Of a stretch of 12,854 nucleotides of DNA, positions 1,942 through 10,527 are shown one piece after another (positions within the stretch are counted from its first letter, which is position 1; the number at the start of each line of letters is the position of its first letter). Both the position numbers and the translations under genes were made by a program. The DNA lies in assembly GCA_029856435.1 (NCBI GenBank), contig JAHQXB010000181.1, positions 1 through 12,854 of the forward strand, read 5' to 3'. This stretch comes from Candidatus Jordarchaeia archaeon (GTDB taxonomy: Archaea; Asgardarchaeota; Jordiarchaeia; Jordiarchaeales; Jordiarchaeaceae). The notes beneath the pieces were generated by a model. It was not told where the DNA came from. It did not search any database and saw nothing but the letters and a program-made list of their open reading frames with translations.

Positions 1942-3120
1942 ATGGCAATTGTTTCAATAGTAAAAACCAATGGAAATGTTGAAGAAGGAGTTAGAAAAGC
2001 GGTAGAATTAGCAGGCGGCATTGACATCGAACCCGGCGCAAGCATCCTCATAAAACCCAACCTCAGCTGCGCCAAACCCTCCGGAAGCGGTCTAGTTACA
2101 AGCGTCGAAGTCATTTCCGCCATGGTAAAATTGGTAAAAGAGATGGGAGGTAAACCTCTGGTTGGAGACCTGCCAATCGCCGGCTGGGACCCAAAGGAAA
2201 CATACAAAATCACAGGAGTCAAAAAAGCCACAGAGGACGCCGGCGGGCAATTCATCGACTTCAGCAAAGACCAACCTGTAACCATACAGATACCAGACGC
2301 CGTAAAACTAAAAAGCGTGAAACTAGTACGCACCGCACTCACCGCCGACGCCATAATCTCCCTACCCGTCCTCAAAGCACACTTCTTCACGGGACTAACA
2401 TTATGCATTAAAAACCTAAAAGGTCTAACACTACAAGACCAAAGAACAAAAATACATGTACTTGGCCTATATGACCCTATAATCGACCTCTTTTCGGCCC
2501 TAAAAAGCAAAGTGATATTTGGACTAGTAGACGGTACAGTGGGCTGCGAATCAATAAGACCCTCCGGACCATACTACGGCCCCACCGAAGGGAAACCCAT
2601 AAAACTCGATACCCTCATAGCGGGAAAGGACATCGTGGCAGTCGACAGTGTAGCGGCAGTAACCGCAGGAATAAAGCCCAAAAGCATGAAACTACTCCAA
2701 ATCGCCTATGAGAGAGGATTAGGAGAAATAGAAGACATAGAAGTAAGAGGCGAAAAAATAAAGCCCCACAAACTCAAACAAACCCTATTCGGACGAATTA
2801 TGGGCAGCCTAAACAGTCTATGGACATCCAAAATCGCCAACCCCATAACTCACCCCCTAGTGAAGCGCCTTTTTGGTCCCCAAGTACAAAGCTTACGATC
2901 CGTAGAAAAAGAACTCCAAGAGGTTGTTCCCAGCAGAATAGTCCTAGCTGGCGAATGCGATAATTGCGGAATATGCGTCAAGAGCTGCGGCATAGGCAAC
3001 ATAAAACTGGGCAAAAACGGACCCATAATAGGCGATAAATGCATCGTCTGTCTCATATGCGTGGAAGTATGTCCGAAAGCAGCCTTGGCAGTTAAGAGGG
3101 TTGAGGAGGTTTCAGCTTAG
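1942..3120 (+). CDS. DUF362 domain protein with C-terminal 2x[4Fe-4S] ferredoxin domain
   Basis: 392 aa. DUF362 motifs ILIKPNL, SLPVLKAH, TLCIKNLKG, DIVAVDSV. Two CxxCxxCxxxC motifs (CDNCGICVKSC, CIVCLICVEVCP). AGGTGA upstream of ATG. 3' end overlaps cca by 9 nt (convergent). Confidence 0.88.
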   Translation: MAIVSIVKTNGNVEEGVRKAVELAGGIDIEPGASILIKPNLSCAKPSGSGLVTSVEVISAMVKLVKEMGGKPLVGDLPIAGWDPKETYKITGVKKATEDAGGQFIDFSKDQPVTIQIPDAVKLKSVKLVRTALTADAIISLPVLKAHFFTGLTLCIKNLKGLTLQDQRTKIHVLGLYDPIIDLFSALKSKVIFGLVDGTVGCESIRPSGPYYGPTEGKPIKLDTLIAGKDIVAVDSVAAVTAGIKPKSMKLLQIAYERGLGEIEDIEVRGEKIKPHKLKQTLFGRIMGSLNSLWTSKIANPITHPLVKRLFGPQVQSLRSVEKELQEVVPSRIVLAGECDNCGICVKSCGIGNIKLGKNGPIIGDKCIVCLICVEVCPKAALAVKRVEEVSA

Positions 3121-4518
3121 TAGCCAGTTGGGTTTTCCTAGATAGTATTTTGTTAAAAATTCGGCGAAGTCCGGATTTTGGAGGTAGATGTTGGATATTT
3201 CTGTGTTTAGGAGGATTTCGAACTTTTGAGAGATTTTTTCTGCGATGTATTTTCCGAGGCCTAGTGTTTTTATTTTGTTGCGTATTTCGTGGTCTAGTAG
3301 TTTGTCGGCTCTAGTGTGTTGGCGTAGGAGTTCTACTACCCATTTTCCGTTTTCTATTCGGGGTCCGGATACGGTTCTATCTGATTTGGTGTGTTTTTTT
3401 AGGAAGGGGGGTTGGCCGATGCTTCCAGGTGGGGGGCCCAAATGTTTGTATGTTTTGGGGATTGTTATGCTTTCAAGCTCTAGTATTAAGATTGTTTTTT
3501 CTTCTCCGGACCAGGCGTCTTTGTTGATTATTTTGAAGTCTTTGGATTCTAGGAAGCTTTTGAGGGCGTCGAGGGATTTGTAGATTTGGCCCCATAAGGT
3601 GTCTGGTGGGATTTTGGGTGTTTCGAATGTTAGGAATAGGGTGTCAGTTCCTTTTTTTCCGTGGAGGTTTTGGAGTTCTTCAGGGCTGAAGGGTTTGATT
3701 TTGTTTGGGAAAAAGAAGATTTCTCGTGGTTCTTCTAGAAAGGCTTTTGATGCTGCTTTGAATTCTCCGATTTTTTGTTTGGTTAGTGCCGCGGAGACAT
3801 TTCTTTTGGGGTCTACTGGGTCAATTACCACTAGTGGTTCAGAAAAAATTTTTTTAATTTCTTTGATATTGGTGTAGTGGTTTTCTATGTCTATGATGTG
3901 TTGTGGTTCCCATTTGATACATTCCTCGAGGAGGCGTGGGAAGGATGAGTAGTGCATCATCAAGATTTCGCACAGGTATCCAGAAAATCCTCCAATTCTT
4001 ATTTCGGCACCATAGGCATTTATTCCCATTAGAAATTGTTTCAGGAGTCTTACTTCTCTTTTTAAAGATTCGTTAAGATTTTTTTTGACGTAGGCGGTGT
4101 GAAGTGGGGTTCTGTCAACTGAGGAGACTAGTTCTGTAGCGTCGCTGATCTCGAAACTGGGAACGAAATCGACTTGGAACTCCTCTATTTCGGCACGCAG
4201 GTATGGGTGTTCGGCATATTTCTCTTTGCCTTTTCCTCCTGTTACTTTTCGCGCAATTTTTAATCCTAATTCTCCGATCTCTTTATAGGTGTAAGTTCTT
4301 GGAAAAACCATGAAAATGTCGATGTCTGGATTTGTTTTTATCCACGTGTCCTTCGCTATGGAACCCACGAGTACCGGGTTGACGGTGATGTTTAGATTCG
4401 CCGCTTCGTCCCTCACCCTTTTAATTAACTCTTGGGATAGGCGTTCTACTTTCATTCTATCTTCTGTTGAGGGTATAATCTTTTTGGATACCTCTTCGCA
4501 TACTGTTTCTAAATTCAA
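3112..4518 (-). CDS. cca: Archaeal (class I) CCA-adding enzyme / tRNA nucleotidyltransferase
   Basis: 468 aa, TTG start. Pol-beta nucleotidyltransferase motif LVGSIAKDTWIKTNPDIDIF, plus YAEHPY, VDRTPLHT, YGAEIRIGGFSGYLCE and VVIDPVDPKRNVSAA, all typical of archaeal CCA enzymes. Confidence 0.95.
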   Translation of the reverse strand: MNLETVCEEVSKKIIPSTEDRMKVERLSQELIKRVRDEAANLNITVNPVLVGSIAKDTWIKTNPDIDIFMVFPRTYTYKEIGELGLKIARKVTGGKGKEKYAEHPYLRAEIEEFQVDFVPSFEISDATELVSSVDRTPLHTAYVKKNLNESLKREVRLLKQFLMGINAYGAEIRIGGFSGYLCEILMMHYSSFPRLLEECIKWEPQHIIDIENHYTNIKEIKKIFSEPLVVIDPVDPKRNVSAALTKQKIGEFKAASKAFLEEPREIFFFPNKIKPFSPEELQNLHGKKGTDTLFLTFETPKIPPDTLWGQIYKSLDALKSFLESKDFKIINKDAWSGEEKTILILELESITIPKTYKHLGPPPGSIGQPPFLKKHTKSDRTVSGPRIENGKWVVELLRQHTRADKLLDHEIRNKIKTLGLGKYIAEKISQKFEILLNTEISNIYLQNPDFAEFLTKYYLGKPNWLLS

Positions 4519-4562: not shown

Positions 4563-5120
4563 TTAAGGTACGCTTCTTAGTGTACTGTACTTGGGTCCCT
4601 TTGGGGTGAGTTTGCTTTCCTTTAACCTAATGGAGTTTACAGTCATGGTTCCGATTTCTAGGGTTGAAAGGTTGAAGATTAGTTTGGCTAGTTTTTCTTT
4701 ATTATGTGCGCTTTTTACTCTGGCAATAGTTGCGTGTGGGGTGTATTCTCTTCCTTCAGGTTTAAATTTGAGCTTTCTAATCTGCGTCTCTAAATCATTA
4801 TATATGCGAATAATTTCCTCTTTGCCTTTCCGGGCTCCTATCCATATATTATTTATTCTGGATAAACTGGGAAAGCAGCCTACTCCATAGAGTTCAAGTT
4901 CTATAGGTGTTAATTCAATGGTCTTCATACTTTCATAAATTTTATCTACCATTTCAGGGCTAATGTTATCCAGAAATCTGAGCGTAAAGTGAAGATTTTC
5001 TGGCTCCACCAGTTTGAGCTTTGCCCCTGTTTTTGTCAGCTCCTGTTGTATGTCGAGAATCTTTTGAATTAAACCCTTATCTTCGATATCGATTGCTATG
5101 AAAGCCCTAATGCCTTCCAG
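4563..5120 (-). CDS. thpR: RNA 2',3'-cyclic phosphodiesterase / 2'-5' RNA ligase (2H phosphoesterase), about 185 aa
   Basis: Two 2H motifs, LHFTLRF and PHATIAR, plus the C-terminal LKESKLTPKGPKY. The frame stays open upstream of the track's start (5009) and gives the conserved N-terminus (L)EGIRAFIAIDIE. There is an in-frame TAG at 5135-5133, so the best start is CTG 5120-5118, 8 nt after GGAGG. Confidence 0.92.
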   Translation of the reverse strand: MEGIRAFIAIDIEDKGLIQKILDIQQELTKTGAKLKLVEPENLHFTLRFLDNISPEMVDKIYESMKTIELTPIELELYGVGCFPSLSRINNIWIGARKGKEEIIRIYNDLETQIRKLKFKPEGREYTPHATIARVKSAHNKEKLAKLIFNLSTLEIGTMTVNSIRLKESKLTPKGPKYSTLRSVP

Positions 5121-5763: not shown

Positions 5764-6357
5764 GTGGAGCTTATGAATGAAAAAAATGATTCAGACGAGG
5801 AAAACGAAACAGAAGAGGTGGAAGAAGTAGTAGAGGAAAAGGTGACTGCCCGCCTTAAAGAAGATGCCGTGATAGTTGGGGCAGAGGATGCTCAGAAGAT
5901 TTATGAGAGAGGTTTCTTTGGGGAAATTCAAGAGGACGGAACCCTTAAATTATCCCCTGTAGAATCACTACTCCTTGTGGAAAGAAACAGATTAGAAGTG
6001 CTAAATGATAATAATGAAGTCCTAAATTTTCAGGCTCTTACAAAAATTTTTATGAAATATAATCCCAATCTCTGGTTAAAGTATTTAGTCTACAGAGATT
6101 TAAGATCTAGGGGGTATGTTGTTAGGTCTGGGTATGGGGGGAATATAGATTTTAGACTATACCCTAGGGGGGCAAAACTTGGAACTGACACTTCAAAAAG
6201 TCTCATCTACATTGTTAGTGAGGGAGCCCCGATTGGTTTAGAGGAGTTAGATAGAGTCACAAGGTTAGCGGTCTCTACAAGAAAGAGGTTAACTATGGCT
6301 GTGGTGAATCGGCAAGGGGAAGTCACGTATTATCAAGTGTCTCAAGTCTCGATTTAA
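5764..6357 (+). CDS. endA: tRNA splicing endonuclease family protein, probably the non-catalytic (structural, beta) subunit
   Basis: EndA N-domain (GFFG...LKLSPVESLLLVE) and C-domain (KYLVYRDLRSRGYVVRSG..DFRLYPRG...STRKRLTMAVVNRQGEVTYY). Against the recalled catalytic consensus, Tyr is Gly and His is Thr, while Lys is kept. The start may be ATG 5773, which follows GGTGGAG. Confidence 0.85.
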   Translation: MELMNEKNDSDEENETEEVEEVVEEKVTARLKEDAVIVGAEDAQKIYERGFFGEIQEDGTLKLSPVESLLLVERNRLEVLNDNNEVLNFQALTKIFMKYNPNLWLKYLVYRDLRSRGYVVRSGYGGNIDFRLYPRGAKLGTDTSKSLIYIVSEGAPIGLEELDRVTRLAVSTRKRLTMAVVNRQGEVTYYQVSQVSI

Positions 6358-6456: not shown

Positions 6457-7992
6457 TTGACAAGTTCTCGTGACTCGTTGCTAAATCCCGCTTTAGGATT
6501 TTATGTGGAGGAGATTGAAACCACAGAAGATATTGCGATTCCTCAGAATCCTTTGGACAGGGTTATCGGGCAGGATCATGCAGTTAAAATGGCTAAGCTG
6601 GCGGTTCGGCAAAGGAGGCATCTATTGCTGGTTGGCTGTCCGGGCGTCGGAAAATCTATGATAGCGCAAGCTATGGCTTTTCTGCTGCCCCCGCCCAAAG
6701 AAGAAATATGGATAGTGGATAATCCAAAAAACCCCGAGAGACCTTTTGTAGAAACTAGAAAAGGCGGAGAAATTGATAGAGGGAAAGATATTGGCGAAAT
6801 AGTTAGTCCAGATAAAATTCCCGCCGAAGTGGCTATAAAACTTGGTTTCAAATGCAGAAAATGTGGGGCGTTAACCTCCGCTTTAAAGAAAAGGTGTGAA
6901 ACATGCGGAGAAGAGAAGGAGGGTTATGAGGATAGAAAATCCGCATCGCCTTTTCGGGACTTGTTCGAAACTGAAATGTTCAATTCTTCTAAGAAACAAA
7001 TCAAGATGAACAAAATTGTGCCTTATATAAGGAAGGTGGATGGTAAACAGGAAGTCACTGTTTATGAGCAGATAGATACTGACCCGTTAAAACCTTCTGT
7101 GCGTGTTTTGAATCAAAATGCCCTCGAGAAGCTTAGGAAAATAGAAAAGAGTAGGCCCAGTAAAGTTCTCGTGCCCCTAAAAAGGAAAACTTTTATACAA
7201 GCAACTGGCGCCAGTGAAACAGAACTTTTAGGGGACGTAAAACATGACCCTTATGGTAACCATCCTGAACTCGGCTCTCCACCATACACTAGAGTGGTTC
7301 CTGGCGCAATTCATGAGGCTCACGAGGGAATCTTGTACATAGATGAGTTACCTCAGCTGGGGCATCTGCAAACATTCCTTTTAACCGCCATGCAAGATAA
7401 AAAATTCGGGATATGTGGGCGGAATCCTCAGAGCAGTGGCTCAAGTGTGAGAGTTGATTCTGTTCCCTGCGATTTTATTTTTGTTGGCGCCTGCAACATT
7501 CAAGATTTAAGATTAATACTCTCCCCTCTCAGATCGCGTATACAAGGCAATGGATATGAAGTGTTACTGAATTCAACTATGCCAGACACTCCAGAAAACA
7601 GGGCTAAAATTGCTCAGTTCGTTGCTCAAGAGGTTGTTGCAGATGGCCGAATTCCACACGTTACAAGAGAGGCAATAGAGGAACTGATTCAAGAGGCGAT
7701 AAGAAGAGCACAGATAATCGATGGAAAAAGCAATGCTATCACTCTTAAACTTAGAGACCTTGGCGGAGTAATTAGGATGGCAGGAGACCTCACCCTAGAA
7801 GTAGAGAGCCCACTTGTGGAAAGAACCCACATGAAACAAGCCATAAAACTCTGTTTGCCAGTAGAAGAACAAATTAAAAGAGAATATGGTTCCCTAGAGA
7901 AAGCCTTAGAGAAAGAATTACCACTAGCTGAGCGAGATTTGAGCAAAAGTAATTATCCTGAAAACTATCAGAATCAAAGCTTGTACGGTTAA
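6457..7992 (+). CDS. LonB-like AAA+ ATPase lacking the Lon protease domain and membrane anchor, with Zn-ribbon insert
   Basis: 511 aa. LonB-type N-terminus PLDRVIGQDHAV, Walker A GCPGVGKS, GDVKHDPYG, Walker B ILYIDE, Arg-finger region PLRSRIQG. CRKC...CETC insert. No long hydrophobic stretch and no C-terminal Ser-Lys protease motif. Confidence 0.82.
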   Translation: MTSSRDSLLNPALGFYVEEIETTEDIAIPQNPLDRVIGQDHAVKMAKLAVRQRRHLLLVGCPGVGKSMIAQAMAFLLPPPKEEIWIVDNPKNPERPFVETRKGGEIDRGKDIGEIVSPDKIPAEVAIKLGFKCRKCGALTSALKKRCETCGEEKEGYEDRKSASPFRDLFETEMFNSSKKQIKMNKIVPYIRKVDGKQEVTVYEQIDTDPLKPSVRVLNQNALEKLRKIEKSRPSKVLVPLKRKTFIQATGASETELLGDVKHDPYGNHPELGSPPYTRVVPGAIHEAHEGILYIDELPQLGHLQTFLLTAMQDKKFGICGRNPQSSGSSVRVDSVPCDFIFVGACNIQDLRLILSPLRSRIQGNGYEVLLNSTMPDTPENRAKIAQFVAQEVVADGRIPHVTREAIEELIQEAIRRAQIIDGKSNAITLKLRDLGGVIRMAGDLTLEVESPLVERTHMKQAIKLCLPVEEQIKREYGSLEKALEKELPLAERDLSKSNYPENYQNQSLYG

Positions 7993-10170: not shown

Positions 10171-10200
10171 GTGGGCTTCCTCTTCTCTCGAAGAGTTCAT
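10171..10200 (-). other. tRNA-iMet intron 2 (30 nt, position 15/16)
   Basis: ATGAACTCTTCGAGAGAAGAGGAAGCCCAC. Central helix GGGT/GCCC, bulges AG|A and AC|T, hairpin CTCTTC-GAGA-GAAGAG with a GNRA loop. Confidence 0.82.
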
Positions 10201-10205
10201 CTACC

Positions 10206-10236
10206 TTAGACTTGGATTCTCAATTTGAGAATCCAT
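10206..10236 (-). other. tRNA-iMet intron 1 (31 nt, position 10/11)
   Basis: ATGGATTCTCAAATTGAGAATCCAAGTCTAA. Central helix GGAT/GTCT (two G-U pairs), bulges AG|A and AA|G, perfect 10-bp hairpin TGGATTCTCA-AAT-TGAGAATCCA. Confidence 0.82.
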
Positions 10237-10302
10237 CTATCCCGCTAACAAGCACACTCTTCCCGCTACGTTTTAGGACAAGGAATCTTATACTTAGAGC
10301 TT

Positions 10303-10310
10303 TATTTAAA
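10303..10310 (-). promoter_or_regulatory. Candidate TATA box for tRNA-iMet
   Basis: TTTAAATA on the minus strand, about 57 nt upstream of the mature 5' end. It implies a leader long enough to include the 10261-10268 repeat. Confidence 0.35.
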
Positions 10311-10417: not shown

Positions 10418-10527
10418 TGGTGGGCCCAACGCGATTCGAACGCGCGCCAGCGACCCTTAAAGGAATTACTCCTTTGAAGTCTTTCGGTTATCAGCCGAAC
10501 GCTCTAACCAGGCTGAGCTATGGGCCC
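10418..10527 (-). tRNA. tRNA-Ile(GAT): tRNA-Ile (GAT) with one intron; exons 10527-10481 and 10448-10418
   Basis: Joined exons give 78 nt: GGGCCCA TA GCTC AGCCTGGTTA GAGC G TTCGG CTGATAA CCGAA AGGGC GCGCG TTCGAAT CGCGT TGGGCCC A CCA. All stems pair. Anticodon at 10492-10490. CCA is encoded. Confidence 0.93.
10449..10480 (-). other. tRNA-Ile intron (32 nt, position 45/46, variable loop)
   Basis: ACTTCAAAGGAGTAATTCCTTTAAGGGTCGCT. Long intron hairpin with an AAAGGA/TCCTTT core. Central helix CGAA/GTCG has one A.G mismatch. Bulges AG|A and CT|G. Confidence 0.78.

Follow-up and report, generated by a model that had tools for sequence, protein, structure and literature searches.

A three-intron initiator tRNA gene with a five-nucleotide micro-exon in the Asgard genus Freyarchaeum, and a predicted preference for removing intron 1 before intron 2

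How can an exon of five nucleotides be kept when the nearest cleavage sites of the introns on either side of it lie only 5 nt apart? The question is raised by a tRNA gene in a stretch of archaeal DNA of 12,854 nt, referred to here as the window. A preliminary description of this DNA had proposed a defined pathway in which intron 1 is spliced before intron 2, so that the micro-exon would not be released by simultaneous cleavage. The reading that joins all the evidence, and to which somewhat better than even credence is given, is that of a functional single-copy initiator gene with three relaxed introns, overlapping splice motifs, a genuine micro-exon, and leader-aided splicing in the order 1 then 2.

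The initiator tRNA(CAU) gene occupies positions 10246-10081 on the minus strand and, as read from the sequence, is divided into four exons and three introns, all on that strand. Exon 1 (AGCGGGAUAG, 10246-10237) supplies tRNA nt 1-10, an assignment based on the sequence, intronless orthologues and ARAGORN, and is followed by intron 1 (31 nt, 10236-10206), which interrupts position 10/11 and ends in AA. Exon 2 is the micro-exon GGUAG (10205-10201), corresponding to nt 11-15, which form the 5' strand of the D stem and the start of the D-loop. Intron 2 (30 nt, 10200-10171) lies at position 15/16 and ends in AC. Exon 3 (10170-10155), assigned to nt 16-29 on the same three grounds as exon 1, is separated by intron 3 (27 nt, 10154-10128, position 29/30) from exon 4 (10127-10081), which comprises nt 30-76 and carries the CAU anticodon, the T arm, the 3' acceptor strand, A73 and an encoded CCA. 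When the exons are joined, ARAGORN recognises a tRNA-Met(CAT) of 78 nt with a cloverleaf of normal size, and does so in all six members of the genus. An A1-U72 pair is present, the two ends reading AGCGGGA...UCCCGCU, and the anticodon stem is closed by three consecutive G-C pairs, 29-31/39-41 (CAGGG/CCCUG). Judged from the sequence, the A1-U72 pair and the three G-C pairs mark the spliced product as an archaeal initiator.

The unspliced locus escapes standard searches. ARAGORN applied to the whole window called no tRNA, and Rfam at E<=10 returned nothing over 10246-10081, matching only the neighbouring tRNA at 10421-10527. Being missed by standard finders is the one point in favour of a decayed pseudogene or a chance resemblance, an explanation that is nevertheless considered vanishingly improbable: the genome contains one match to the gene and one GG-CUCAUAA-CCC anticodon arm, the locus is its sole initiator-type gene, conservation with compensatory changes extends across seven loci, and the spliced product is a perfect cloverleaf. 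The neighbouring tRNA (10421-10527, minus strand) has the anticodon GAU (Ile) and one intron, located in the variable region, and CCCAU at its nt 4-8 could base-pair with AUGGG in its leader. For the orthologue of this tRNA-Ile(GAU) in the genome G005, two introns are listed, which shows that members of the genus differ in intron content.

The positions of the junctions are established by comparison with relatives. A search of 40 relatives recovered orthologues in each of the other five species of the genus, which is Freyarchaeum (Asgard). Three congeneric orthologues are 93-94% identical, and two others, 71-72% identical, are without intron 3. This intron is absent from the genomes G005 and G002 and from the metagenome locus L034, in which the sequence CAGGGCUCAUAACCCUG runs uninterrupted. 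In five sister-family genomes the 5' half is continuous (...GGGGUAGUCAGGAGAUCCC); it is the same as the product of joining exons 1, 2 and 3 and has an identical D stem, GGGU/UCCC. Because the flanking bases differ at each junction, the boundaries cannot slide, and the intronless orthologues, the intron-3 polymorphism and ARAGORN together fix the junctions at 10/11, 15/16 and 29/30. The micro-exon GGUAG is invariant in seven loci and equals the GGUAG of the intronless orthologues; these observations and ARAGORN bear out the earlier reading of exon 2 as GGTAG at 10205-10201. Introns 1 and 2 are likewise kept in the seven loci, in every one of which the terminal A of intron 1 (10206) is invariant. 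A metagenome scan for the exon 1-intron 1-exon 2 pattern produced 15 loci, 13 of them chance matches and two real (L030 and L034), with L034 representing a new sequence variant among the metagenome loci.

In a canonical BHB motif, the 5' bulge contains the final base of the exon (N) together with N-1, bases N-5 to N-2 pair with intron positions -6 to -3, and the 3' bulge is made up of the last two intron positions (-2 and -1) and the base that opens the following exon. Central helices of 4 bp occur at these offsets in all three introns, for intron 2 only after intron 1 has been removed. They are formed by GGAU (nt 5-8, G5-U8, 10242-10239) with GUCU (10211-10208) for intron 1, by GGGU (G10-U13, with G10 at 10237) with GCCC (10176-10173) for intron 2, and by CCGC (nt 24-27, 10160-10157) with GCGG (10133-10130) for intron 3. 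The inner helix is a hairpin of 9-10 bp with a single bulged A in intron 1. In intron 2 it begins with U-A and G.A (U-A/U-A in G005, G002 and L034) and continues with 6 bp, the hairpin being CUCUUC/GAAGAG, and in intron 3 it consists of 4 bp, CCUU/AAGG. A proper outer exon-exon helix, h, was found in none of the three introns when positions N-6 and N+2 were examined: these are G4/G12 for intron 1 and A9/C17 for intron 2, and intron 3 has only C23-G31. With the inner helix present and the outer one missing, the three introns belong to the relaxed HBh' type.

A naive relaxed-BHB motif scan was rejected as evidence, since it yields 60-110 candidates per locus and missed the true introns 1 and 2 of the window. 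As about 100 candidates per locus arise by chance, the motif alone proves nothing, and it is the comparative evidence, not a BHB match, that carries the case for the architecture. In the structure model, 98.4% of cells pair over six distinct sequences, a value reached by none of 500 shuffles. The intron-1 hairpin carries three compensatory pairs, and the central helices of introns 1 and 2 vary from G-C to G-U on the intron side only, as in G002, where GCCC becomes GCUC and pairing is retained as G-U. Two-sided covariation was sought over the six distinct sequences in the central helices and in the leader ('decoy') helix described below; none was found, the exon sides being invariant and the decoy helix free of variation.

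The genome encodes two paralogues of the splicing endonuclease EndA. The paralogue on contig C104 matches the catalytic chain of the Aeropyrum pernix heterotetramer with an E-value of 3e-45, and Y/H/K (Tyr, His, Lys) are aligned. The paralogue in the window (5764-6357, plus strand), which has the Pfam tRNA_int_endo N and C domains, is without the catalytic His: TDTS replaces KEHS of M. jannaschii EndA in the alignment, and the Tyr of the catalytic triad is apparently present (FRLY). It is probably a structural subunit of the splicing endonuclease, and the enzyme appears to be of the tolerant two-subunit type, a putative (alpha-beta)2 assembly. Relaxed motifs are known substrates of EndA enzymes with two subunits (PMC4090602, PMC5829648). 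This tolerance fits the HBh' introns described above, and by the same token a 3-bp helix may remain cleavable. The window also contains genes for a CCA-adding enzyme (3112-4518, minus strand) and a LigT/2H phosphoesterase (4563-5009, minus strand); together with the EndA paralogue gene, these lie within 7 kb of the two intron-bearing tRNA genes.

The motifs of introns 1 and 2 overlap by shared bases. G10 is both the last base of exon 1 and the outermost pair of the intron 2 central helix, and G11 is both the third base of the intron 1 3' bulge (A, A, G11) and the second pair of the intron 2 helix. Since G11 is common to both, the two motifs cannot be fully formed together. As long as intron 1 is present, the base preceding G11 is A10206, which places an A/C in the position of the G10 pair. 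The junctions and motif offsets agree with the preliminary description, which had the intron 2 helix pair G10-U13 with GCCC while G10 sits in exon 1, and the AGGU strand with its A.C mismatch that had been predicted for retained intron 1 is likewise seen, A10206 being the invariant base noted above. Only the ligation of exon 1 to exon 2 thus brings the intron 2 motif to full strength. The structural dependency of intron 2 on intron 1 is real, conserved and, through the shared G11, stronger than first stated.

The size of this dependency was estimated with constrained partition functions in ViennaRNA, in which the central helix was enforced, the bulges were kept unpaired, the native leader was 34 nt long and folding was protein-free. 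With the native leader, removal of intron 1 raises the predicted intron-2-competent fraction from 3e-4 to 0.028 in G000 (88-fold), from 9e-4 to 0.17 in G001 (195-fold), from 1.5e-3 to 5e-3 in G005 (3.4-fold) and from 9e-4 to 8e-3 in G002 (9-fold). Without the leader, the increase is 4.6-fold in G000, 11-fold in G001, 147-fold in G005 and 2-fold in G002. Overall, the predicted rise covers 2- to 200-fold and has the same direction in every species modelled, with or without the leader; the intron 2 fraction also rises when folding is carried out at 60 C. The modelled intron-1-competent fraction shows no systematic dependence on intron 2. For the isolated motifs of G000 at 37 C, dG is -15.3 kcal/mol for intron 1, -12.1 kcal/mol for intron 3, and -12.8 kcal/mol for the complete intron 2 motif vs -8.8 kcal/mol with A in place of G10, so that G10 is worth 3-4 kcal/mol to the isolated intron 2 motif. 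Intron 1 has the most stable of the three motifs in four of five species, the exception being G002, in which it is predicted to be weak (P ~2e-4, dG -5.3).

An obligatory order does not follow from these values. Three of the four intron 2 central-helix pairs exist while intron 1 is still in place, and an A/C can form a wobble-like pair. The intron 2 motif is also loose even when complete, the nearest-neighbour model leaving a 7x3 internal loop and no clean 3-nt bulge, which implies that the enzyme already tolerates imperfection here. These points, and the tolerant enzyme indicated by two EndA paralogues, speak for splicing without a defined order, in which either intron could be removed first, a relaxed endonuclease would cut the 3-bp AGGU/GCCC helix with much the same efficiency as the 4-bp one, and the micro-exon would be kept because two enzymes cannot sit 5 nt apart simultaneously. 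Moreover, the models give only a small effect in G002 and, when the leader is included, in G005. An absence of order is nevertheless judged somewhat unlikely, as the predicted direction is identical across all species and conditions, G11 is unable to serve both motifs simultaneously, and the intron 1 motif is the more stable one in most species. Of the proposed defined pathway, therefore, the part that stands is a modelled bias toward 1 then 2, seen in all species; with three pairs pre-existing, an obligatory order would be a stronger claim than the models support. In these models, removal of intron 1 before intron 2 amounts to a strong preference rather than a proven obligation.

The region upstream of the gene contains further conserved sequence. 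A TATA-like box, TTTAAATA (10303-10310, minus strand), is located 56 nt upstream of tRNA nt 1 and is conserved in all congeners. In other tRNA genes of G005, a similar AAATTTA box lies 35-45 nt upstream of +1, and from this spacing a leader of about 30 nt is deduced here. Within the leader, a conserved 15-nt element, GUAGCGGGAAGAGUG (10269-10255, minus strand), begins with 9 nt that constitute a spare 5' acceptor strand, or 'decoy', complementary to the 3' strand UCCCGCUAC with A73 and C74 included. The element is invariant in five of the six distinct sequences and has one change in L034, and its flanks are variable. It is separated from tRNA nt 1 by the 8-nt spacer UGCUUGUU (10254-10247, minus strand), which shows no covariation and has two possible partners in predicted folds, A1-G4 and the AAGC of intron 2. 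A contig scan for the 15-nt element gave only chance matches, in unrelated bacteria.

The second AGCGGGA upstream of the gene could also be read as the true 5' exon, with the stretch between the two copies as a fourth intron, because splicing anywhere within the repeat would yield an identical mature sequence. This reading was rejected on BHB geometry and is held to be very improbable: if both sites fall within the repeat, the central helix would have GCGG on each strand, and GCGG cannot pair with GCGG, and sites at the repeat edges give only two of four pairs and leave the motif geometry unmet.

Both the MFE and the alifold structures show the decoy paired to the 3' strand, with the intron 1 motif formed; nt 5-8, which the intron 1 central helix needs, would otherwise sit in the acceptor stem. 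The modelled intron-1-competent fraction is 0.15-0.23 with the native leader in G000, G001 and G005, compared with 5e-7 to 3e-5 without a leader and medians of 8e-7 to 3e-3 with shuffled leaders, so that the native leader boosts the predicted intron 1 motif 1e3- to 1e5-fold. In the models, the conserved leader copy appears to be necessary for the intron 1 motif to fold. We infer a double role for it: it releases nt 5-8, and it keeps hold of the 10-nt exon 1 once cleavage has taken place. The models were also examined for a post-splicing switch to the true acceptor stem, and none is predicted: the decoy remains favoured by 1.5-5 kcal/mol with all introns removed, and the model gives no account of how the leader is displaced for RNase P and the true acceptor stem prevails.

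A comparable arrangement is found in one other gene. Only tRNA-Thr(CGT), with an intron at 8/9, shares with the initiator an intron inside the first 10 nt among the tRNAs of G005, and it has a conserved leader sequence, GGAGCC, complementary to its 3' end GGCUCC. This GGAGCC resembles the 5' strand GCCUCGG with one inserted U, and the leader GGAGCCUUCGGUGA is identical in two species (G000 C94:~7337-7590, plus strand; G005 L193). Among the 36 listed tRNA genes of G005 that were compared, no leader copy was found in front of the other 34.

The leader may act on intron 2 as well. Its second half (AAGAGUG) is a potential partner of CACUC at the boundary between intron 2 and exon 3, and since the intron 2 effect differs between species, this pairing is kept as a rival or additional mechanism. 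As a rival, it holds that the leader rather than G10 imposes the order, GAGUG...GCUU pairing with AAGC.CACUC and masking the 3' end of intron 2 together with the splice site until intron 1 has gone or the leader has rearranged. The duplex occurs in the full-precursor MFE structures of G000, G001 and G005 and in the alifold consensus, the native leader cuts the full-precursor intron-2-competent fraction 14- to 60-fold in G000 and G001, and the C16 lineage has an extra leader G able to pair one step further in. However, the leader raises the intron-2 fraction in G005, clean covariation was not found, both G005 and L034 have disrupted outer pairs, and the proposal is a thermodynamic prediction. 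Masking by the leader as the source of order is rated improbable, and the shared bases G10 and G11 remain the preferred explanation.

The preferred pathway, in which splicing is ordered by the overlapping motifs, would consist of four steps. The leader's acceptor-strand copy would hold the 3' acceptor strand of the primary transcript, thereby freeing G5-U8 for the intron 1 motif and tethering the 10-nt exon 1. Intron 1 would then be excised and the ends ligated, and the completed GGGU/GCCC helix would present intron 2. With intron 1 gone and the ends joined before intron 2 is cut, the micro-exon would always be covalently attached to a larger piece. A bolder version makes every step depend on the one before, in the manner of an assembly line: the leader would be needed for intron 1 and removal of intron 1 for intron 2, RNase P would trim the 5' end only after splicing had started, and the 5-nt exon would depend on the enforced order. 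This version is decidedly tentative and, taken as a whole, fairly unlikely; if true, it would reverse the usual order of ends first, introns later.

The locus matters in part because an initiator tRNA is indispensable and this is the only gene for it in the lineage, one that is missed by standard tRNA finders and by the published table; Asgard annotations here consequently appear to be without an initiator. It is also a compact natural substrate for testing how overlapping motifs and a leader helper strand can order protein-catalysed RNA splicing. The introns may have relatives elsewhere: tRNA-Pro(CGG) of G005 (L175) has a D-loop intron, AACUCUUC...GAGAAGAGGAG, that resembles intron 2 of the window (AUGAACUCUUCGAGAGAAGAGGAAG), and intron 1 of G005, G002 and L034 also begins AU(G/U)AACUCUC. 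These similarities suggest a spread of related introns from gene to gene and from one position to another, a process that has been described for Thermoproteales.

Valentin-Alvarado et al. (2024, PMC11291895, Supplementary Data 4) reported that many introns interrupt the tRNA genes of both Freyarchaeia and Atabeyarchaeia, and G005 is the complete Freyarchaeia genome of that study, a single contig of 3,576,204 bp from the same genus as the window. The supplementary table lists 38 tRNAs and no initiator, both of its Met(CAT) genes starting with G1. The initiator orthologue at G005 C1:1729301-1729446 (L162) is not in the table; it lies about 160 nt downstream of tRNA-Ile(GAT), number 18 in the table, whose coordinates in G005 are exactly those tabulated. 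As in the gene described here, introns at 15/16 are common in the published set (five genes) and short exons occur. With 5 nt, the micro-exon is at the lower extreme of the exon sizes listed for the lineage (7-9 nt), and it is therefore extreme but not different in kind. That study is silent on splice order and leaders.

Ordered removal of closely spaced tRNA introns has already been published, and the principle is not new. In archaeal tRNAs, introns that lie close together may have to be removed one after another (PMC8450103, PMC3978253), and nested introns in which the last BHB is formed only once the others are gone are cited in PMC3978253, PMC3728597 and PMC8450103, in general agreement with the preliminary description, which had taken sequential BHB formation as established and had named Thermofilum pre-tRNAs as the case. 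A close parallel is provided by the multi-intron tRNAs of the crenarchaeal Thermoproteales, as they are presented in PMC8450103 and in the citations of Sugahara 2007 and Tocchini-Valentini 2009 in PMC3978253 and PMC3728597. Those accounts describe, as here, two to three BHB-type introns per tRNA, a motif completed only after removal of a neighbouring intron, and a genome encoding a two-subunit endonuclease of relaxed specificity. By the same accounts, the dependency is total in Thermoproteales, whereas here it is partial, involving one of four helix pairs and one shared bulge base; the present case differs further in its Asgard lineage, in the 5-nt exon between the introns and in the involvement of a leader copy of the acceptor strand. 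In multi-intron pre-tRNAs of Cyanidioschyzon merolae, the order tracks the calculated free energies of the motifs, the more stable BHB being spliced first (Soma et al. 2013, PMC3728597), and RT-PCR detected only one kind of intermediate (PMC3728597). The motifs of Cyanidioschyzon fold independently and their order is experimental, whereas in the Freyarchaeum initiator gene the motifs overlap and the order is a modelled one.
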